From Octopus vulgaris (lineage: Eukaryota): a stretch of 64,000 bases of DNA. The notes below the pieces were generated by a model. That model ran no database searches and had not been told where the DNA came from. It saw only the letters and a program-made list of their open reading frames with translations. The stretch is from NCBI GenBank assembly GCA_951406725.2, contig OX597838.1:27156001-27220000 (forward strand). Reading direction: 5' to 3'. How positions within the stretch are numbered: position 1 is the first letter of the stretch; the number at the start of each line of letters is the position of its first letter. Shown here one piece after another: positions 5,078 through 50,745 of the stretch. A program made the position numbers and the translations under genes.

Positions 5078-5340
5078 TCTTTTATTCTTTTAAAGCACTG
5101 CCTTTAGTTGAGCAAATTGACCCCAACATCGCTTGACAACCAATACTAGTGTGTTTACATCCTGGTAACTTAGCGGTTCGGCAAAAAAGACCGATAGAAT
5201 AAGTACTAGGCTTAGAAATAATAAGTCTTGAGGTCGATTTGCTCGACTACAGGTGGTGCTCCAGCATGGCTGCAGCCAAATGACTCAAACAAGTATAAGA
5301 GAGTATATATATTTATATGTATATATGTATATATATATAT

Positions 5341-5918
5341 AATAATAAATCTCTGAGCGAGATATAGACAGTAACTGCTCTATAACATAAGGGGGATCAG
5401 CCATCTGAATGTGGCTAGGGACAGGGTGGGGTAGTGGGGGTGTTACTGATGCATTTAGCCCCAGGTGATCATCAACGTCACCAGAAGGGCTGACACCATC
5501 TCGGTGTTCTTGCCAGCCTGCAAAGGGAGATCAGCCTCCCCGAAGATACGGATACTACGTACGGACCGGTTTCGAGGTATTTGCCTCTTATCAACGCATG
5601 GTAAGCACCGTTCTTCGTTGAGGGACTCCCTCTACAGGCTGGATATATATGGATTTTCACAGTAACCACAGTCACTGATGTAGAAAAACCGTTCGACAAC
5701 AATAATAAATCTCTGAGCGAGATATAGACAGTAACTGCTCTATAACATAAGGGGGATCAGCCATCTGAATGTGGCTAGGGAGAGGGCGGGGTAGTGGGGG
5801 TGTTACTGATGCATTTAGCCCCAGGCGATCATCAACGTCACCAGAAGGGCTGACACCATCTCGGTGTCCTTGCCAGCCTGCAAAGGGAGATCAGCCTCCC
5901 CGAAGATACTACCCCGCC

Positions 5919-5921
<3 letters not shown>
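5341..5921 (-). repeat. 360-bp HHR-containing tandem repeat, subfamily 1 (~1.6 units; retrozyme/Penelope-pLTR-like)
   Basis: Unit start AATAATAAATCTCTGAGCG at 5341 and 5701; TA-rich or (TA)n flanks; no ORF. Confidence 0.8.
5557..5603 (-). ncRNA. Type I hammerhead ribozyme, U3-A8 core variant
   Basis: Minus strand: TGCG-TTGATAA-GAGG(caaata)CCTC-GAAA-CCGG-TC-CGTA; palindromic stem III, GUC cleavage triplet. Confidence 0.7.
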
Positions 5922-5966
<45 letters not shown>

Positions 5967-5968
<2 letters not shown>

Positions 5969-7243
5969 CAATAATAATTCTCTAAAAGAGATATAGACAG
6001 TAACTGCTCGATAACATAAGGGACTAAAGCCATCTGAATATGGCTAGGGACAGGGCAGGGTGGTGGGGGTGTTACTGTTGCATTTAGCCCCAGGCGAACA
6101 TCGACGTCACCAGAAAGGCTAGACACCGTCACGGTGTCCTTATCCTGCAAAGGGAGGTAATTCCCCGATGAAGCGGAAACCACACACGGACCATGGTTTC
6201 AAGGTGTATTGCCTATCGTCGGCGTGTGGTAGGCTTCCGCTTCCTCGATGAATTCTCATTCTGCAGGATTTTCACATATAGATTTTCAAGCAAAATACAT
6301 TTGCTGATTTCGAAAATCTGTTCGAAAGCAATAATAATTCTCTAAAAGAGATATAGACAGTAACTGCTCGATAACATAAGGGACTAAAGCCATCTGAATA
6401 TGGCTAGGGACAGGTCTAGCCTTTCTGGTGACGTCGATGTTCGCCTGGGGCTAAATGCAACAGTAACACCCCCACCACCCTGCCCTGTCCCTAGCCATAT
6501 TCAGATGGCTTTAGTCCCTTATGTTATCGAGCAGTTACTGTCTATATCTCTTTTAGAGAATTATTATTGCTTTCGAACAGATTTTCGAAATCAGCAAATG
6601 TATTTTGCTTGAAAATCTATATGTGAAAATCCTGCAGAGTGAGAATTCGTCGAGGAAGCGGAAGCCTACCACACGCCGACGATAGGCAATACACCTTGAA
6701 ACCATGGTCCGTGTGTGGTTTCCGCTTCATCGGGGAATTACCTCCCTTTGCAGGATAAGGACACCGTGACGGTGTCTAGCCTTTCTGGTGACGTCGATGT
6801 TCGCCTGGGGCTAAATGCAACAGTAACACCCCCACCACCCTGCCCTGTCCCTAGCCATATTCAGATGGCTTTAGTCCCTTATGTTATCGAGCAGTTACTG
6901 TCTATATCTCTTTTAGAGAATTATTATTGCTTTCGAACAGATTTTCGAAATCAGCAAATGTATTTTGCTTGAAAATCTATATGTGAAAATCCTGCAGAGT
7001 GAGAATTCGTCGAGGAAGCGGAAGCCTACCACACGCCGACGATAGGCAATACACCTTGAAACCATGGTCCGTGTGTGGTTTCCGCTTCATCGGGGAATTA
7101 CCTCCCTTTGCAGGATAAGGACACCGTGACGGTGTCTAGCCTTTCTGGTGACGTCGATGTTCGCCTGGGGCTAAATGCAACAGTAACACCCCCACCACCC
7201 TGCCCTGTCCCTAGCCATATTCAGATGGCTTTAGTCCCTTATG

Positions 7244-7247
<4 letters not shown>
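5967..7247. repeat. 360-bp HHR-containing repeat, subfamily 2: ~1.25 forward units plus ~2.3 inverted units
   Basis: Period 360 (5967/6327; 6415/6775/7135); strand switch at ~6414; (TA)n on both flanks. Confidence 0.85.
6668..6719 (+). ncRNA. Type I hammerhead ribozyme-like motif (also at 7028-7079 and, on minus, ~6179-6230)
   Basis: ACCACACG-CCGACGA-TAGG(caataca)CCTT-GAAA-CCATGG-TC-CGTGTG; at the apex of a long hairpin 6629-6756; core has C at position 4. Confidence 0.65.
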
Positions 7248-7332
<85 letters not shown>

Positions 7333-23598: not shown

Positions 23599-26500
23599 AG
23601 CCGACTACAGCTGCTATAATGGTACGATTATAATTGTAACAGCAATGATGGCCGTCTCCCCACGAGCCAATCAAAGCTAAAAAATGATAACATTATCGTA
23701 GCACCAAAATGTTTTTGGAAACTAAAAGGAAAACTAAATCAGTATACCAAATCGCTTGTCCTATGGTTAATCTGGAAGCGCGTCCCCCAGGGAAGAGCCA
23801 GCCTGGGATCGAAAAGTCATCAACTGGCACAAACTCTTCTCCGAATACGGACATGGATGGTCACTTGAATGGGAAATCCCCCAACTCAAGCCCTCCAAGT
23901 TCACCACCACAACCACCACAGAAAGAAAAATGTAAGTGGAACAAATGGACCCGAGAAGAGTATAAAGAAGTAATATACGCTTATTACTATGCATTAGGTA
24001 GGCCATCTCAAGAGAGACACACCCCAAACTCTTACAGTATATGGAGAACACGGAATCAAGACAGTAGGCCCTATTTGGACGAGAACAAATTAGCAAATGT
24101 GAGGAGGGATATCCTAAGAAATAACAGACTCACAGACAGTGAAATAAGCGCGATCAAGCACGCAACGGAAAATGACATAAATATAAGACACAAAGGAAAT
24201 GAAGAATCAGATGAACAGTATAGCCCGCCACGAGGCTTAATTGAAAGACTGCCATCTGACCAAAGTATGCAAAGGCCTGAAGATACAAGAAATTCTATTG
24301 TACCTGTTAAAGATAGCCAGGAAAACGAAAAAACAACAGTAACTGAAGATCTCGCATTTGCTGAAGAACACAGAGAGTCTATGGCAGAAATGAGGCAGAA
24401 AATCCTGAATACGCTTGAGGTTGTAAGACATACAAGTATGAATGATAGAGAACCACTTCATAAACTCTCAAATACAAAGCAAAATAAAAAACAAATCCAA
24501 ATTGGCAACTATGTAACAAATGAAATAATACGAGAATTAAAACCTGATTTTACTGAGTTAAATGAAATTATTTACGCTTCTGCTAGGGCAATTGAAACCA
24601 GCTGTATGCCCCCGAAAAAACAAAGAAAACAAAACCTGGGAAGAAATCAAACCTGGAGAAGTAAAATTGAAAAAGAGATTGAATTTATGAGAGGGGAAAT
24701 ATCAATATTAAATGAACTAATATGTGGAAATGATGTAAGATCCAGAACAGGAAGAAAGATGAAGAGAAAATTTGGATCCTCACCAAGAGAAGAACTGATA
24801 TCAATAAAAGAAACGCTGAAACAAAAAGTCCAAGCAAAAGCCCAAAGAATACGAAGATTTGAGAAGAGAAACAAGTTTTACAAGCAAAATAAGCTGTTCA
24901 CATCCAATGCCAAAAAATTCTACAGAGAAATAGGGAAGGAGAAAGTAACCGTTAAAGACCCCCCTCCCATGGAAGAAGTTCAAAACTTTTGGAAAAGGAT
25001 TTGGAGTGACAAGAAGACGTACAACATAAATGCAGACTGGATTATACAAACTGAAGGATCCTACCAAAATTTACAACAAGCATGGGAAGACATCACAATA
25101 GCAGACCTAAGAAAGGCACTCACGAAGGCCCATAATTGGAAATCCCCCGGTAAAGATAGGGTGACGAATTTCTGGCTCGCATCGCTCCCATGCGCACACG
25201 GTAAACTAGTTCAGCTGCTCAATGGAATTATGGGATACCCAAAGAAAACACCTGAATGGTTAGCAAGTGGCATTACTTACCTACTCCCAAAGAATAACGA
25301 AACCAACCTTCCAAAAAACTATCGGCCTATAACCTGTCTATCCACCACGTATAAAATCCTAACATCTATCCTGGCGGAGAAAACATATGCATTCATGGAA
25401 AAGAACGATATTTTCCCCATTGAACAAAAATGGTGCCGCCGAGGCTCTTACGGATGCAAAGATCAACTGCTAATCAATCGTATGATCCTTGAGAACTGTC
25501 ACAACAAGCGCAGAAATCTCAGCACCGCATGGATTGACTATAAAAAGGCCTTCGACAGTGTACCGCATCCATGGACATCTTCAAAATTTCCCCTGTGATT
25601 TCAAACTTCCTGAAGCACAATATGTCGTTGTGGAATACGAATCTCCAATTATACCACTCTAATGGAGTACTTGCCTCAGAAAATATAAACATCAACTGTG
25701 GAATTTTTCAAGGTGACTCACTTTCACCTTTAATATTCTGCATAGCCCTAATACCCCTTACAAGTGAATTAAACAGAACAGGGTATGGGTATAAAATTGC
25801 CAATAAAAAAATAAGCCATCTATTTTATATGGATGACTTAAAACTTTATGGTAAAGACAATAATGAACTTGAAGGCCTATTGCGCACCGTGAAAGCATTC
25901 AGCGATGACATCGGGATGGAGTTTGGACTTGAGAAGTGTGCCAAAGCCACTTTCCAGAAAGGGAAAGTGAAGACCACAAATTCAGTCATGTTAGATGTTG
26001 ACACAGTCATAAGAGAGCTTGAGCAAGAACAAACATACAAATATTTAGGGATAAATGAAGGCTCTGGTATTCAGCATGCAAGCATGAAAGAAGATCAGGA
26101 AGGAATGTTATAGGAGAGTTCGTGCAGTCCTGAAATCTGAACTAAATGCACGTAACAAGGTGTTAGCTATAAATTTCTTAGCAGTTCCAGTTGTTACTTA
26201 TAGCTACAATGTGTTGAACTGGAATATGAGTGAAGTAAAGAATATAGATAGGAAAATACGCAAGCTGCTGAGTTGTAATAGGATGCACCACCCAAAGGCA
26301 GACGTAGATCGCCTTTACCTTCCCAGAGCCCAAGGAGGTCGAGGCCTGATCCAATTTGAACTAGCTTACAAAACAACCACAATTGGACTGGCCAAATATC
26401 TCGAAATATCGAATGACTGGATGCTAAAGCTCGTGGAAAATCACGAGAGATGAAAGAAGCTTCATTCTATTATAAAGGAAAGCAAAAAATTTGCTATTGA

Positions 26501-27554
26501 TCTCATGCAGGATACCCAAACTGAACAACCCGAGGGAAGTACGGCAACTATTGTTGCAAAGAAGGTGAAAATGATGGCAACGAAAAAAGCGCACGAGCAA
26601 TTGGCTGATAGGTGGGAGGAGAAACCTCTGCATGGCAAATATGTGACCCGCAGCAAACAAGCTGATGTTGACCAGAAGCAAACCCATCAGTGGCTACGGA
26701 GCTCAGGGCTAAAAGCAGAGAGCGAAGGTTTCATCCTGGCTGCTCAAGATCAAAGCCTATTAACCCGGAACTACCAGGCCAATGTGATGAAAAATGGAGC
26801 AGACCCAAAATGCCGATTCTGCAACGACATGATTGAAACAGTGGACCACCTAATCTCTGGATGTAAAGTCTTAGCACCAGTGGAGTATAAATTAAGACAT
26901 GACAGAGTTGGCCAATATCTACACTGGCTAATAAGTCGGCATTACAATATCAAAACTGCCGACAAGTGGTATAATCAGGACCCTGAGGCTGTAACTGAAG
27001 GAGAAAATGTAACCATTCTGTGGGACTTTCCAGTACATACAGAGTGAACCATCAAGGCCAATAAACCAGATATTGTTGTGAAAGACCAAAACAATAAAGT
27101 TTGCTTATTGATCGACATGAGCATCCCCTGTGATCATAATATCTCAGCGAAAGAGTTTGACAAGCTCAGAAAATATAAAGACCTACTCATTGAAATTGAG
27201 AAAATGTGGCATCTCAAGGCGGTTACAATACCAACGATCGTAGGAGCACTAGGAATGATCAAGAAGGGAACCGAAAATTATATGAGAATGATCCCTGGCT
27301 TACCATCCCTGCAAGAAGTGCAAAAGATTGTCTTAACTGGTACATCACACGTATTGAGAAGAGCATTGTCGATGTGAGAACTGTTGCTGCTCATGTATTT
27401 TAATTTAACTTAAAAAAAAAAAAAAAAAAAAAATGAACGAACTATTGAGTTTGGTTTAATGGCCTACCAATGTATACTATGAGTTTCTTTGCCCTAGGAG
27501 TCGGGAAGACACTCGGCAAGAAATGGAAGCAAATTTGAAAGAAGAAAAAAAAAG
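23599..27554 (+). mobile_element. Near full-length non-LTR retrotransposon, RLE type (R4/Dong clade)
   Basis: Single ORF with N-terminal domain, RT, CCHC knuckle and PD-(D/E)xK nuclease; short UTRs; TAA-rich tract upstream and (TAA)n tail 27555-27637. Confidence 0.9.
23709..27377 (+). pseudogene. RT-RLE polyprotein, disrupted
   Basis: KSPGKD, YRPITCL, AWIDYKKAFDSVPH, GIFQGDSLSPLIF, FYMDDLKLY, YKYLG, CRFC..ETVDHLISGC, RHD, KPDIVV, LIDMSIP, KLRKYKDL; frameshifts near 25570 and 26090; TGA stops at 26451 and 27045. Confidence 0.92.
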
Positions 27555-31150: not shown

Positions 31151-31437
31151 ATAAAGGGCAAATACCCTGAAACTAGTCTGCAGATGCCTGACCAGCAAAG
31201 GGAAGTGGCTGACCTCCCCTGTTCGAAGGTTATAATGGACACAGTGTGTCACATAGCTAGCTAAAGGCGATGGCCTCTCGGAGCTAATCAACGTCAGCTT
31301 TTGTCCTATATTTATGGACTGTCATATTAGCTTGACGATAACTATTAATATCCAGTACTGCTGCCGTAGTCTCCTTTAGAAAGACTTAGAAATAACTAGC
31401 ATTATGACCCGTCGTTGCTGGGTCATAGTGCTAGTGC
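31151..31437 (+). mobile_element. Diverged third member of the 360-bp HHR repeat family, 5'-truncated within the HHR core
   Basis: ATAA-AGGG(caaata)CCCT-GAAA-CTAG-TC; downstream blocks GGCTGACCTCCC, GGACAC..GTGTC, GGAGCTAA and CAGTACTG are colinear with subfamilies 1 and 2. Confidence 0.55.
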
Positions 31438-40239: not shown

Positions 40240-41445
40240 ATTCCAGACATCATTGCTTTCCCTCCTTAACTTTTCCACATGGTGTCCCTTAATGATACAC
40301 ATACACACACACAAATATATGTATATATTATATAAGAATATAAATGTATGTATATATACATCTATATATTTCATTCGTTTGTTTTTATTATTATATACAT
40401 ATGTAGACATATATATATATAAATATTTGTATGTGTGTGTGTAGATATATATATATATATATACACACGTGTGTTTGAGTATTATAAAGTGCATATATTG
40501 TAGGGTTTTTTCTTTTATCCCAGCGGGTCTTATTGGAAGAAATCGATCTGTAATAAAGACACATTCCGTTTTCGTTCCCTTAAATTTTTTTTTATATTGT
40601 GACTTCCCTAGGGATCTATCTAAGACCAATTTCTTTTTTATATATCTTCCATACGAATGAATACACACACAAACAGACACACCTACATGCATGTAAGCAA
40701 GTGTATATCGAAATAGATGTATTAGTCTATAAAATAAATATACACTTGCTAAACATGCATGTATGCTCGCTATTAAATCTGTGTGTGAGTATGTATATGT
40801 GTATATATATATACATATACATACATTATACCAATATTTTTTATCTCCTATACGAATACACAGTAAGAGAGAGAGAGAGAGACCACATACATACATACAC
40901 GTGCATGTTAGCAAGTGTATATATATATGTATATATGGTGTCTATTCGACCTCTCTGTCTTTCTCTATATCTCTATCTCTCTGATTATCTTATACAAGGG
41001 GTAATTGGTAGCTGGTTTGTGTTGTGTTTTATAAACGAAATCAACGAATGACGCCTGCATGGCAACCCGAATGCTGTGTGGTGGTGTGTCTTTCTAACGT
41101 TGAGGTGCAGCCATTTCAGCCAGTCATGTGACAGCTCTTTCTCTCTCTCTCCAACTTTCAGTCACATTTCTTACTTTCTTTCGTGTGTGTTGGCGATGAC
41201 AGCTTCTTTCGCTTAATTTTCTTTCCAAACCCGTTTTTAAAGTAAACTGTAAAAAATACACGAAATAAAAAACCGGCTGTATATGTATGTATGGCGAAAG
41301 ATCGCCGTATGTATTTGTATGTGTGTGTTTGCTTGTTTCACTGAGAGCCCAAGCCTTCTATGAATCGCATTCCGACCGTGACCATCTGGTTTTTTTTTTC
41401 TTTTTTTTTTGCATTTTCTAAAATTAAGTCGGACACGGTATAATT

Positions 41446-42763
41446 TCTGAGTTCAAATTCCGCCGAGGTCGACTTTGCCTTTCCTCCTTTCTGGGTCGAT
41501 AAATTAAGTACCGGTTACGCACTGGGGTCGATATAATCGACTTAATCCGTTTGTCTGTCCTTGTTTGTCCCCTCTGTGTTTAGCCCCTTGTGGGTAGTAA
41601 AGAAATAGAAATAGGTATTTCGTCTGCCGTTACGTTCTGAGTTCAAATTCCGCCGAGGTCGACTTTGCCTTTCATCCTTTCTGAGTCGATAAATCAAGTA
41701 CCAGTTACGCACTGAGGTCGATATATAATCGACTTAATCCGTTTGTCTGTCCTTGTTTGTCCCCCTCTGTGTTTAGCCCCTTGTGGATAGTAAAGAAATA
41801 GAAATAGGTATTTCGTCTGCCGTTACGTTCTGAGTTCAAATTCCGCCGAGGTCGACTTTGCCTTTCATCCTTTCTGGGTCGATAAATCAAGTACCAGTTA
41901 CGCACTGAGGTCGATATATAATCGACTTAATCCGTTTGTCTGTCCTTGTTTGTCCCCCTCTGTGTTTAGCCCCTTGTGGATAGTAAAGAAATAGAAATAG
42001 GTATTTCGTCTGCCGTTACGTTCTGAGTTCAAATTCCGCCGAGGTCGACTTTGCCTTTCATCCTTTCTGGGTCGATAAATCAAGTACCAGTTACGCACTG
42101 AGGTCGATATATAATCGACTTAATCCGTTTGTCTGTCCTTGTTTGTCCCCCTCTGTGTTTAGCCCCTTGTGGATAGTAAAGAAATAGAAATAGGTATTTC
42201 GTCTGCCATTTCGTTCTGAGTTCAAATTCCGCCGATGTCGACTTTGCCTTTCCTCCTTTCTGGGTCGATAAATTAAGTACCAGTTACACACTGGGGTCGA
42301 TATATAATCGACTTAATCCGTTTGTCTGTCCTTGTTTGTCCCCCTCTGTGTTTAGCTCCTTGTGGGTAGTAAAGAAATAGAAATAGGTATTTCGTCTGCC
42401 GTTACGTTCTGAGTTCAAATTCCGCCGAGGTCGACTTTGCCTTTCATCCTTTCTGGGTCGATAAATCAAGTACCAGTTACGCACTGGGGTCGATATATAA
42501 TCGACTTAATCCGTTTGTATGTCCTTGTTTGTCCCCCTCTGTGTTTAGCCCCTTGTGGATAGTAAAGAAATAGAAATAGGTATTTCGTCTGCCGTTACGT
42601 TCTGAGTTCAAATTCCGCCGAGGTCGACTTTGCCTTTCATCCTTTCTGGGTCGATAAATTAAGTACCGGTTACGCACTGGTGTCGATATAATCGACTTAA
42701 TCCGTTTGTATGTCCTTGTTTGTCCCCCTCTGTGTTTAGCCCCTTGTGGGTAGTAAAGAAATA
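41446..42763 (+). repeat. ~193-bp tandem array (~7 units) of the SINE family B body
   Basis: Units joined by AAGAAATAGAAATAGGTATTTCGTCTGCC; whole array flanked by GGTATAATT. Confidence 0.9.
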
Positions 42764-43150
42764 GGTATAATTCCCAGGCTACCACAATTGTTCATTTCAA
42801 TGCTTAGCGATATTTCTTTCGTCCGTCTTCACGTTCTGAGTTCAAACTCTGTCGAGGTCGACTTTGCCTTTGGTTCCCTCATAGCCTATAAAATACCAGT
42901 TGAGGGCTGGGAACCGATGTAATCCACACCCTACCATTACCCCAAATTCAGCTCTTGTGCCTATTTATTATTATTATTCAAATACTATTTAATGTGGGAT
43001 GCGACAAGAAAGACATGTGACTTTTTGTAGCCGGTCATGCATGTATATTATACGATTGTGTAGTGTGTTGAGCGGGTGTATATAGTTTATACAGCTTGTG
43101 ATGAAATTGTAGATCTTTCGCTTCTCTATCTATCTGACTGTCTATATATA

Positions 43151-43277: not shown

Positions 43278-43642
43278 TAAAAGTATTACTTAAAGTTTAC
43301 CGTGAAATGGTCTTTTTTTCATGCCGAATTCTACTTGGTGAAATTATTGATTACTTTTTAATTAATTAATTTTACCCTTTTCTCTCTCTCTCTATATATA
43401 TATATGTATGAAACGATTGTACTAAAAACCTATCCATTCTTGTTGCTTCTTTCTCGCTTATAATCACCCCACATTACTGTATTGTTAAAACCGTATAGTT
43501 TGTTTTGGTGCATCTAAGTTAGGTACCATATTCAAGTAAATTCATTTAAATTAACTTGAATCTTTATTGCTTTTATTATATATATATATATATATATATC
43601 GTGACGTATTTTTGCCATTTCAATATGGCTAACCCCTAAGGG

Positions 43643-46139: not shown

Positions 46140-47940
46140 ATAGAATCGTTGGTGCGTCGGACAAAATGCTTAGTATTTCTCCCGGCTATCTACGTTATGA
46201 GTTCAAATTCCACTGAGGTCGACTTTACCTTTCAGGGATCGATTTAAAAAAAAAAGTACCAGTCAAGTACGAGGGGCGATGCAATAAACTTGCCCCCTCC
46301 CCTCAAAATTTCTGGCGTTCTGCCAAATTTAGTAAGCATTGTGATTATGTGGCCAACTGCTTACGTTCTGAGCTCAAATACCTCCGAAGTCAACTTTGCC
46401 TTTTATTCTTTCGGGGCCATTACAATAAAGAATCTGTCGAGCACTTGGGTTCATATAATCATTGGCTTATCACCCACTCTTTTAAAATTTGCTGGCCTTG
46501 TGCCAAAATTCGAAACCATTCCGCCGAGGTCGACTTTGCCTTTCATACTTTCGGGATCGATGGAATCGATTTACCCTGCCCCTCAAGATTACTGGCCTTG
46601 TGCCAAACCTTGAGGCCATTATTATTTTGAAGGCGGCGAGCTGGCAGAAACGTTAGCACGCCGGGCGAAATGCTCAGCGTTGTGAGTTCGAATTCCGCCG
46701 AGGTCGACTTTGCCTTTCATCCTTTCGGGGTCGATAAATCAAGTACCAGTTACGCACTAGGGTCGATGTAATCGACTTAATACCTATGTCTGTCCTTGTT
46801 TGTCCCCTCTGTGTTTAGCCCCTTGTGGGTAATAAAGAAATAGGTATTTCGTCTGTCTTTACGTTCTGAGTTCAGATTCCACCAAGGTCGACTTTGCCTT
46901 TCATCTACCCAGGGTCGATAAATCAAGTACCAGTTACGCACTGGGCCGATCAATCGACTTAATCGACTGGCTGTCCTTGTTTGTCCCCTCAAAATTTCGG
47001 GCCTTGTGCCTAGTAAGAAAAGAAAAGAATCGTCTTTAGCATTCCAGACACCAATGCTTAGCCGGTATTTCATCCGTCTCCGTGTTCTGGGTTGTAAATT
47101 AATGCTGGAGTCGGCTTTGTCCCCTCTGTGTATCCTTCCAGGGTTGATAAAATAAGTACTGTCTTTACGTTCTGAGCAAGGATTCCACCAATGATGTATG
47201 TGATTGACTGGGCCCTTCATTCAAAACTTCAGGCCTTGTGCCTAAAGTAGAAAGGGTTATTTTTAAGGCGGCGAGGTGGCAGAATCGTTACCGCGTCGGA
47301 CAAAATACTTACCGGCATTTTTTTTTTCTATTTTGCCGTTCTTCACGATCTGGGTTCAAAACACCGCCGAGGCCGACTTTGCTTTTTATTTTTCCGGGGG
47401 TCGATAAAATAAATACCAGTTGAGCACTGGGGTTGATATAATCAACTTACTCCCTTCCTCCATACTTCAGGCTTTTTGCCCATATAGAAATAATTATTAT
47501 TTAGGTGGGGATCCGGCAGAATCGTTAGCCGCATCGGACAAAATACTTACCGGCATTTTTTTCTATTTTGCCGTTCTTCACGATCTGGGTTCAAAACACC
47601 GCCGAGGCCGACTTTGCTTTTTATTTTTCCGGGGTCGATAAAATAAATACCAGTTGAGCACTGGGGTTGATATAATCAACTTACTCCCTTCCTCCATACT
47701 TCAGGCTTTTTGCCCATATGGAAATAATTATTATTTAGGTGGGGGATCCGGCAGAATCGTTAGCGCGTCGAACAAAATGCTTGGTAGCATTTTCTACCGG
47801 TGCTCTAGGGTTCGACTTTGCTTTCCATCCTTTCGAGGTCGAATAAAAAAAAAACAAAAAAAAAAAAAAACGTACCACTCAAGTACTCGGATCGATGTAA
47901 TAAAAAATGGCTGGCCTTGTGCCAAATTTAGAAACCAATG
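46140..47940 (+). repeat. Cluster of same-orientation SINE family B copies, including a ~235-bp tandem duplication
   Basis: Repeated GGCAGAATCGTTA starts at ~47278, 47515 and 47750; dimer at 46632-47010. Confidence 0.75.
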
Positions 47941-48342: not shown

Positions 48343-48790
48343 GTCCCGTCTTTTTAAGGGGTATTGTAGGACAATATCTAATTTTTCCGAGGTGTGGTTT
48401 CAAGATTTGGTTGCTATTTCAAGCAGGTAGAGCGACCACGTTGATGCTCCTTCGTTGGATGTATCAAACATCCGAGTCAGTTTCTGATCAAAGGTCCCGT
48501 CTTTTTAAGGGGTATTGTAGGACAATATCTAATTTTTCCGAGGTGTGGTTTCGAGATTTGGTTGCTATTTCAAGCAGGTAGAGCGACCACGTTGATGCTC
48601 CTTCGTTGGATGTATCAAACATTCGAGTCAGTTTCTGATCAAAGGTCCCGTCTTTTAAGGGTATTGTAGGACAATATCTAATTTTTCCGAGGTGTGGTTT
48701 CAAGATTTGGTTGCTATTTCAAGCAGGTAGAGCGACCACGTTGAATGCTCCTTCGTTGGATGTATCAAACATCCGAGTCAGTTTCTGATC
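48343..48790 (+). repeat. ~151-bp tandem repeat, 3 units
   Basis: GTCCCGTCTTTT at 48343, 48494 and 48644; unit related to a dispersed repeat seen at ~10430, 38390 and 54380. Confidence 0.85.
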
Positions 48791-49317
48791 TAAGAGAGCT
48801 CTGATCAAAGGCATTCTGACTATGGCCATCCCGTCTTTATAAGGGAGGGGACTGTGGTTATTTAGCTGTTATTGTTATTACCTGTACCACTCCAGAGGTT
48901 TAGAGGTCACGTTATTATCTCCGTTATGAGTTCAGATCTTGACGAGGTCGACTTAGCTTTTTATGTCGTCTAACTCCTCCTCATTTAGTCTGTGCCTAAA
49001 CTAAAAACAATAAAAACAATTATTATTAGATAGGAAATTAGGCAGAGTCGTTTGAGCGTATTTCGGTTCTTTACGTCCTGGGTTCGAATCCGGCCAACGT
49101 CAACTTTGCCTTTTATTTCTCACGGGTTGGTCAAACAAAAGTACTTGTCAAATTTCTGACCGGAGGGCCAAGAAAGCTGACCGGAGGGCCATGCTTAAGA
49201 AGAAAAGGAACAAGAGGGGCATCCCCAGCATTGCCACAACCAACAAAAAAAAAATCGCAACCATCGTAGTATTCTCCAATGTCGTTACTCAAATGTGGTC
49301 CCTCCCTCCCGATTTTC

Positions 49318-50196: not shown

Positions 50197-50745
50197 CGAA
50201 ATGCTTAGCGGTATTTCGTCTGCCGTTACGTTCTGAGTTCAAATTCCGCCGAGGTCGACTTTACCTTTCATCCTTTCGGGGTCGATAAATTAAGTAAGTA
50301 CCAGTTACGCACTGGGGTCGATGTAATCGACTTAATACCTATGTCTGTCCTTGTTTGTCCCCTCTGTGTTTAGCCCCTTGTGGGTAATAAAGAAATAGAA
50401 ATAGGTATTTCGTCTGCCGTTACGTTGTGAATTCAAATTCCGCCGAGGTCGACTTTGCCTTTCATCCTTTCGGGGTCGATTAAGTAAGTAAGTGCCAGTT
50501 ACGCACTGGGGTCGATATAATCGACTTAATACCTATGTCTGTCCTTGTTTGTCCCCTCTATGTTTAGCCCCTTGTGGGTAATAAAGAAATAGGTATTTCG
50601 TCTGCCGCTACGTTCTGAGTTCAAATTCCGCCGAGGTCGACTTTGCCTTTCATCCTTTCGGAGTCGATAAATTAAGTACCAAGTTACTAATCGACTGGGC
50701 ACCTCCCCCGAAATATCGGGCCGTGTGCTTAGGAGTAGAAAAGAA
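50197..50745 (+). repeat. SINE family B multimer (~2.5 units)
   Basis: Same AAATAGGTATTTCGTCTGCC junction as the 41.4-kb array. Confidence 0.8.

Follow-up and report, generated by a model that had tools for sequence, protein, structure and literature searches.

A stretch of 64,000 nucleotides from Octopus vulgaris (contig OX597838.1, positions 27,156,001 to 27,220,000; hereafter the window) harbors two insertions of a young family of non-coding hammerhead tandem repeats. We consider it probable that these repeats constitute a non-LTR retrozyme and that a Penelope enzyme of the Neptune type copies them into (TA)n tracts. Judged by its sequence, the family is a metazoan non-LTR retrozyme: dispersed units within the size range of 150–450 nt are joined head to tail, contain one type I hammerhead motif, and have neither a protein nor an LTR. 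Two adjacent 3′ ends, an inverted 5′-truncated arm, and an AT-rich target make its insertions resemble those of a repeat mobilized by Penelope. It has no pLTR sequence in common with four young Penelope families and no frame for reverse transcriptase (RT) and GIY-YIG between pLTRs.

The preliminary description of this region reported two neighboring arrays of the same period that are split by (TA)n. The 360-nt period holds in both arrays, with 205 of 209 bases identical between 5341 and 5701 in subfamily 1 and 474 of 474 identical between 6414 and 6774 in subfamily 2, but the layout is that of one arm plus an inverted pair. Positions 5341–7247 thus comprise two separate insertions, each of which is set within (TA)n tracts (Table 1; unit positions are numbered from the predicted hammerhead cut). 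The two arms of the subfamily-2 insertion differ by 2 bases and meet with an overlap of 1 nt. The 12-nt piece that follows the subfamily-1 arm is likely, from its sequence match, the remnant of a second arm. The unit was reported to have no ORF, and no long one is present; its longest ATG-started frame is 50 amino acids and its longest stop-free frame is 92 amino acids.

Table 1 Features of the two retrozyme insertions, in window coordinates.
Feature	Position	Strand	Details
(TA)n target tract at long 3′ end of subfamily-1 insertion	5304..5340	.	
Subfamily-1 arm	5341..5909	-	Spans 1.58 units; 5341 (unit position 223) is the long ("tail") 3′ end
Long hairpin, subfamily 1	5513..5642	-	Outer arms 5642-5626 and 5529-5513, hammerhead at tip; fold z -5.74
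Type I hammerhead, subfamily 1	5558..5600	-	Core 5594-5564; U3-A8; palindromic loop 3 CCGG; predicted cut 5564/5563
12-nt piece in opposite orientation	5910..5921	+	Matches approximately subfamily-1 unit positions 130-142
(TA)n tract separating both insertions	5922..5966	.	Target of subfamily-2 insertion
Subfamily-2 left (inverted) arm	5967..6414	-	448 nt, spanning 1.24 units; 5967 (unit position 222) is the long 3′ end
"Tail" separating both fixed 3′ ends	5967..6010	-	44 nt, unit positions 179-222; limits +/- few bases (TA in common)
Type I hammerhead, subfamily 2, inverted arm	6183..6228	-	Core 6222-6189; predicted cut 6189/6188
Subfamily-2 right arm	6414..7247	+	Spans 2.32 identical units; 7247 (unit position 178) is the short 3′ end
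Long hairpin, subfamily 2	6629..6756	+	Outer arms 6629-6643 and 6742-6756; recurs at +360; fold z -7.19
Type I hammerhead, subfamily 2	6670..6715	+	C4; U.U at stem II base; loop 3 palindrome CCAUGG; cut predicted after 6709
Second hammerhead of right arm	7030..7075	+	Predicted cut after 7069; 6710-7069 is the predicted 360-nt monomer
(TA)n target tract at short 3′ end	7248..7329	.	

Other repeats are present in the window. Positions 31151–31287 and 43596–43642 contain weak, old fragments of the retrozyme family (E values of 2e-7 and 4e-5 against a unit profile). Further young tandem arrays lie at 41445–42764, 50210–50678, 47278–47782, and 48343–48794, with units of 193/194, 234, and 151 nt that are 92–97% matched; the 193-nt unit resembles an abundant SINE-type repeat present in many flanks. 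A broken LINE-type element with RVT_1 split across two frames and a weak zf-RVT occupies 23691–27377. We considered its RT frames (23.7–27.4 kb) as a partner of the retrozyme and rejected them as an unrelated LINE that lies 16 kb off, contains zf-RVT, and gives no GIY-YIG match.

Hammerhead-shaped motifs end in GUC at 6709 and 7069, exactly where cleavage had been proposed. One hammerhead had been assigned to each unit, and a motif is indeed present in each, but a third subfamily-2 hammerhead on the minus strand had been overlooked. Every motif belongs to type I, and stem III is tiny in each. Both cores in the window are non-canonical: subfamily 1 has U3-A8, and subfamily 2 has C4 and a stem II with mismatched U.U at its base; C3-G8 and U3-A8 are swapped between subfamilies. 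The U3-A8 variant and a palindromic helix III have been described for Penelope hammerheads (PMC4209133), and the U4C change lowers activity in vitro, yet is sufficient in a viroid (PMC3088659). Loop 3 is palindromic in all four subfamilies that we recognize and has a different sequence in each (CCGG, CCAUGG, CUCGAG, and CCGCGG). Such a palindrome is a requirement of the dimer-type hammerhead (PMC4209133). The 34-nt core is retained in 167 of 188 subfamily-2 units. A search of Rfam, at the gathering threshold and with E values up to 5, returned no hammerhead match, just noise driven by TA. The RNA of the unit is predicted to be self-cleaving.

The stem pairings proposed in the preliminary description for both subfamilies are all borne out, and the long hairpins fold well below shuffled sequences, with none of 200 shuffles equaling either one. 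The accompanying claim that pairing rather than sequence is conserved was overstated. Both sides change in 10 of 31 named pairs, but 281 of 353 aligned bases are identical between the units, and subfamilies hardly differ in the 3′ strand of the outer stem. As a check for covariation, the count of 10 compares with 0–2 when partners are slid, but it was reached in 124 of 500 shuffles and by that measure is not significant; the shuffle control was passed for cells and for score (0 of 500). These figures come from 18 copies in three subfamilies, that is, three lineages. The inner stem, which fell out of register in the automatic alignment, was left out of the count, and separate folds provide its support.

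Copies of the retrozyme are found throughout the genome. The subfamily-2 34-nt core has 402 exact copies, the subfamily-1 core of the window has 38, and a 21-nt tail motif has 654; the reversed-pattern controls gave 0. Three similarity searches gave 1043, 1893, and 2646 first-look candidates, of which 40 were scored in each; in the first of them, the top-scoring copies are 97–100% alike and spread over many contigs. The GC content of the unit is 46–49%. The 123 subfamily-2 arms have a median length of 1.5 units; at least 2 units are present in 35 of them and at least 4 in 9, and the longest reaches 10.9 units. Subfamily 2 is the youngest of the four subfamilies. Subfamily 3 is older, with copies 88–92% alike to the query, and contains the canonical CUGAUGA in 25 of 26 listed cores, the remaining one being an unrelated chance match. 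The fourth subfamily was seen once (L285:3490-3830) and looks like a mosaic, with a subfamily-1-type core on a subfamily-3-like body. The earlier view of a tandem retroelement that is young, non-autonomous, and equipped with a hammerhead is supported, as is its placement among the non-LTR retrozymes.

On a single contig (G000:C31; L032–L036, L038, and L042), one subfamily-1 insertion occurs seven times within the same flanks, indicative of segmental amplification. Five sequence runs with other organism labels (X6, X15, X16, X19, and X20) contain 35–70% of the sampled words of the unit, and a 390-nt contig in X6 matches the unit with 6 differences. The retrozyme family may extend into related species. 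Contigs from four runs tentatively taken to be RNA cover the unit; ends, strand, and level are not readable from them.

Mussel non-LTR retrozymes have units of 350–390 nt, and their cleavage and circles have been demonstrated (Cervera and de la Pena 2020, PMC7229834). The octopus family resembles the metazoan retrozymes of that report in its tandem, non-coding units of a few hundred nucleotides with a GC content below 50% and one type I hammerhead per unit, in its long self-paired fold, and in the presence of Penelope elements alongside. Unlike those retrozymes, octopus insertions form inverted pairs in (TA)n, obey a two-end rule for the tail, and have non-canonical cores; their cleavage and circles are predicted. 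No description of the octopus family, or of an argument from end signatures, appeared among the results of our literature searches; Repbase and Dfam were outside this search. The main text of PMC7229834 does not contain the words "inverted," "octopus," or "cephalopod," and its supplement could mention cephalopods. The suggestion that the family is undescribed in cephalopods is in keeping with this result, but the kind of element has already been published in mussel (PMC7229834).

The 3′ ends of the arms are fixed. Arms end at unit position ~178 or ~222 (183 or 222–226 in subfamily 1), 44 nt apart, and their 5′ ends are scattered. The main sample consists of 101 insertions, 40 of which were found by likeness, 27 by the exact core in the first four contigs, and 34 of which belong to subfamily 1; loci that overlapped were counted once, and of 7 copies duplicated within one contig, 6 were removed. 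The sample contains 70 two-armed, 29 one-armed, and 2 complex insertions. A short end is paired with a long end in 61 of the 70 two-armed insertions, and the other 9 have one off-position end; none has two ends alike. Ten further subfamily-1 loci comprise 1 short-plus-long insertion, 2 with an off-position end (one of which, 166/183, is ambiguous), and 7 one-armed insertions. When both samples are taken together, the short-plus-long pairing is found in 62 of 73 two-armed insertions, 11 have one off-position end, and 0 have two alike. Canonical ends are followed directly by (TA)3 in 149 of 163 cases (64/65, 44/45, and 41/53). The junctions between arms overlap mostly by 0–9 nt. The 5′ ends do not pile up at the ribozyme cut, where their frequency (3/69, 4/54, and 2/56) is at chance level.

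Inverted arms, a tail of 30–40 bp at one end, and (TA)n targets are traits of Penelope-like elements (Craig et al. 2021), and in Anolis Poseidon the tail was shown to extend from one internal RT start site to the other (PMC11167929). The strict pairing of short and long ends in octopus implies that the two target strands differ in the start site that they use. As far as the account in PMC11167929 goes, strand-specific use of start sites was not observed in the Anolis in vitro work; here it follows from the short-plus-long rule. The octopus unit thus resembles endonuclease-positive Penelope elements (Neptune; Poseidon, PMC11167929; Craig et al. 2021) in its hammerhead, inverted 5′-truncated arm, one-end tail, and AT-rich or (TA)n targets. 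It differs from Penelope elements in that it lacks an RT or endonuclease frame, has a period of 360 nt and a tail of 44 nt rather than 30–40, and carries its hammerhead on a long hairpin.

Candidate sources of the enzyme reside in the same genome. A GIY-YIG search, in which 150 of 6136 candidates were scored, revealed many intact 781-amino acid RT-endonuclease frames. The autonomous elements contain RT, a CxxC linker, and, at the C terminus, a GIY-YIG domain. They fall into four young families with frames of 781, 775, 775, and 811 amino acids, which are designated here as Neptune type from domain order and the cysteine linker alone, a criterion that is common to Nematis. One family (L255–L258 on G000:C1; L103) has a 4271-nt unit with frames of 454 and 775 amino acids and forms perfect whole-unit tandems. 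Its 3′ regions are identical over 326 nt in 40 of 40 scored copies, and it is apparently in a current burst; its hammerhead has a C4 core with a U.U mismatch. The remaining three families (L091–L102, L260–L288, and L309–L316) have frames of 781, 775, and 811 amino acids, and many of the 775- and 811-amino acid frames score equally. In all four families, two 3′ ends abut (TA)n and are separated by tails of ~30–42 nt; the tail of the 811-amino acid family (~42 nt) comes closest to the 44 nt of the retrozyme. Nine of 10 two-armed Penelope insertions are clearly short plus long and 1 is ambiguous, as read from their flanks. The hammerheads of two families have odd cores like those of subfamilies 1 and 2, which hints at a tie between them.

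The agreement between the end signature of the unit and those of the four Penelope families provides a stronger basis for the link to a Penelope-type RT than the one originally put forward, and the assignment of the enzyme to the Penelope class is well supported. The individual partner is another matter. Comparison of the unit with two full Penelope units disclosed no similarity above shuffled controls, and comparison with the 3′ regions of two further families disclosed nothing beyond chance. The unit is not the plain pLTR of any of the four families examined. In addition, no in-line RT or endonuclease frame was found in ~100 retrozyme loci or in 30 position-ordered tail loci. Because these loci lack such a frame and the four families lack unit-like sequence, we do not name a partner family. 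A 38-nt tail match adjoining one Penelope family was considered as a partner link but turned out to stem from an older insertion of subfamily 3 that is separate from that family.

These results bear on the alternative that the repeats are ordinary 5′-truncated copies, consisting of pLTR ends, of an unsampled autonomous Penelope element in its tandem-plus-inverted form. Their end signature is like that of autonomous elements, and the scored GIY-YIG frames are a small part of the candidates. However, the 360-nt period is repeated up to 10.9 times compared with periods of 4271 and 4713 nt in the autonomous tandems of this genome, the unit is preceded by another unit, by (TA)n, or by an unrelated flank, and the in-line frames that this alternative calls for are missing from the ~100 retrozyme loci and 30 tail loci covered. 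We regard the alternative as improbable and largely refuted. Li, Clavereau, Pollet 2026 (preprint 10.64898/2026.07.22.740005) proposed that retrozymes are non-autonomous Penelope derivatives, on evidence of co-occurrence and of pLTR homology in Xenopus, in 31 vertebrates, 3 insects, and 1 coral; a Penelope link was also proposed in PMC7229834. The octopus family shares the proposed Penelope partnership with the retrozymes of the 2026 preprint. Unlike those retrozymes, it has no detectable pLTR homology to the four families, and its link to Penelope is the insertion signature.

In the model that we favor, the Penelope enzyme would nick both strands of the (TA)n target, and one cDNA would begin at each of two internal RNA sites, unit positions 178 and 222. 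Each cDNA would extend upstream, across the hammerhead, over 0.1 to 11 units, and short microhomology would then serve to join the two.

Which form of RNA serves as template can be addressed with rare variants, defined as those found in at most 2 of 66 subfamily-2 loci. Sixteen rare variants are present in every covering unit of an insertion, 11 of them in both arms and one in 11 units. This is the pattern expected from copying round one monomer, and it shows that both arms often derive from one template. Another 18 rare multi-unit variants are present in only some units (1 is an alignment artefact and 1 is in all but a gap); several follow one order in the two arms, a pattern not expected from a monomer circle, and others set the arms apart. 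Templates of several units, switches between templates, or subsequent conversion must therefore also be at work. Moreover, 106 of 123 arms read through the predicted cut, which excludes cut linear monomers as the sole template. The evidence is mixed, as the variants fit a monomer circle in some insertions and a multimer in others. In one locus (L111; G000:C14:72706492-72710747), an 11-unit arm mixes common haplotypes unit by unit while its units have a private A>G change in common, a pattern that may reflect template switching or conversion.

A possibility that we rate below even, yet take seriously, is that the family is a SINE-like repeat mobilized by Penelope from uncut linear multi-unit transcripts with no circle, in which case the hammerhead would be baggage or serve another step and later slippage or conversion would lengthen the arrays. 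Variants that occupy some units, with an order common to the two arms (L002, L118, and L112), and the passage of most arms through the cut agree with this possibility, as do the weakened core of subfamily 2 and the observation that unprocessed RNA is the main substrate of the Anolis element (PMC11167929). It does not readily explain private variants that fill every unit of single insertions (11, 6, 5, and 5 units) and are found in at most 1 other of the 66 loci, or the retention of a palindromic loop 3 through four different sequences; furthermore, linear copying with 5′ truncation alone would shorten arrays. A model with both circles and multimers has a slight edge in our judgment. Multi-unit transcripts would cut themselves as hammerhead dimers, some monomers would circularize and be copied repeatedly round, and uncut multimers would serve as templates as well. 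Against this model stand the C4 core of the youngest subfamily and its U.U mismatch in the place of what is normally a G-C pair. In addition, of 9 predicted retrozyme dimers from Xenopus, 8 failed to cleave (preprint 10.64898/2026.07.22.740005), and the ribozyme of the Anolis element is dispensable for insertion in vitro (PMC11167929).

Variants that are shared among units reveal a further trace. In subfamily 2, variants present in at least 2 units per insertion include A>G at 17 distinct sites compared with T>C at 3 on the ribozyme strand (p = 5e-4; two loci with tangled alignments were excluded), and two separately picked halves agree (13 vs 2 and 10 vs 1). Variants in single units are symmetric (A>G 5 vs T>C 9; G>A 32 vs C>T 28) and are likely DNA mutations. 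At the 17 A>G sites, subfamily 1 has A in 12 and G in 0, and three of the sites recur on several haplotype backgrounds. The long hairpin region contains 10 of the 17 sites compared with 32 of 90 adenines (p = 0.046), and 11 of the 17 face U in the predicted fold. No such bias is present in subfamily 1 (4 vs 3; 6 vs 3). The strand-biased A>G changes in subfamily 2 point to an RNA stage. ADAR is very active in cephalopods and disfavors a 5′ G neighbor; the A>G sites show no depletion of 5′ G neighbors. We give even odds to adenosine editing of RNA that was written back into DNA as the source of the bias, and selection for tolerated G.U pairs could add to the excess, although C>T, which would be enriched in the same way, exceeds G>A by only 5 to 3.

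The same observations weigh on a purely DNA-level explanation, namely a minisatellite or foldback element that spreads by recombination and contains hammerhead words by chance. Inverted arms and identical tandem units would be expected of such an element, and the absence of an Rfam hammerhead match agrees with it. Fixed 3′ ends with scattered 5′ ends, the short-plus-long rule, the A>G bias, and two-sided changes in core and stems are instead signs of an RNA template, and we consider this explanation highly improbable.

What is new here is the unusual clarity of the mechanistic traces in an otherwise published kind of element. The enzyme that moves retrozymes and the role of a circular template are stated as open (PMC7229834; 10.64898/2026.07.22.740005). 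The octopus family supplies a direct genomic signature of Penelope enzymes together with exact predicted priming sites at unit positions 178 and 222, and four young candidate partner families with intact frames are on offer. An in vitro assay exists for Penelope-type proteins (PMC11167929). The A>G bias provides a means of following changes made at the RNA stage as they turn heritable. It is tempting to speculate, although we think it rather unlikely, that an ADAR-edited, viroid-sized circular RNA is rolled into multi-unit DNA by a sequence-unrelated Penelope enzyme and inserted by two-strand priming. If this were true, the genome would hold a dated record of the rolling-circle step and of RNA editing written into the germ line of a heavily editing animal.
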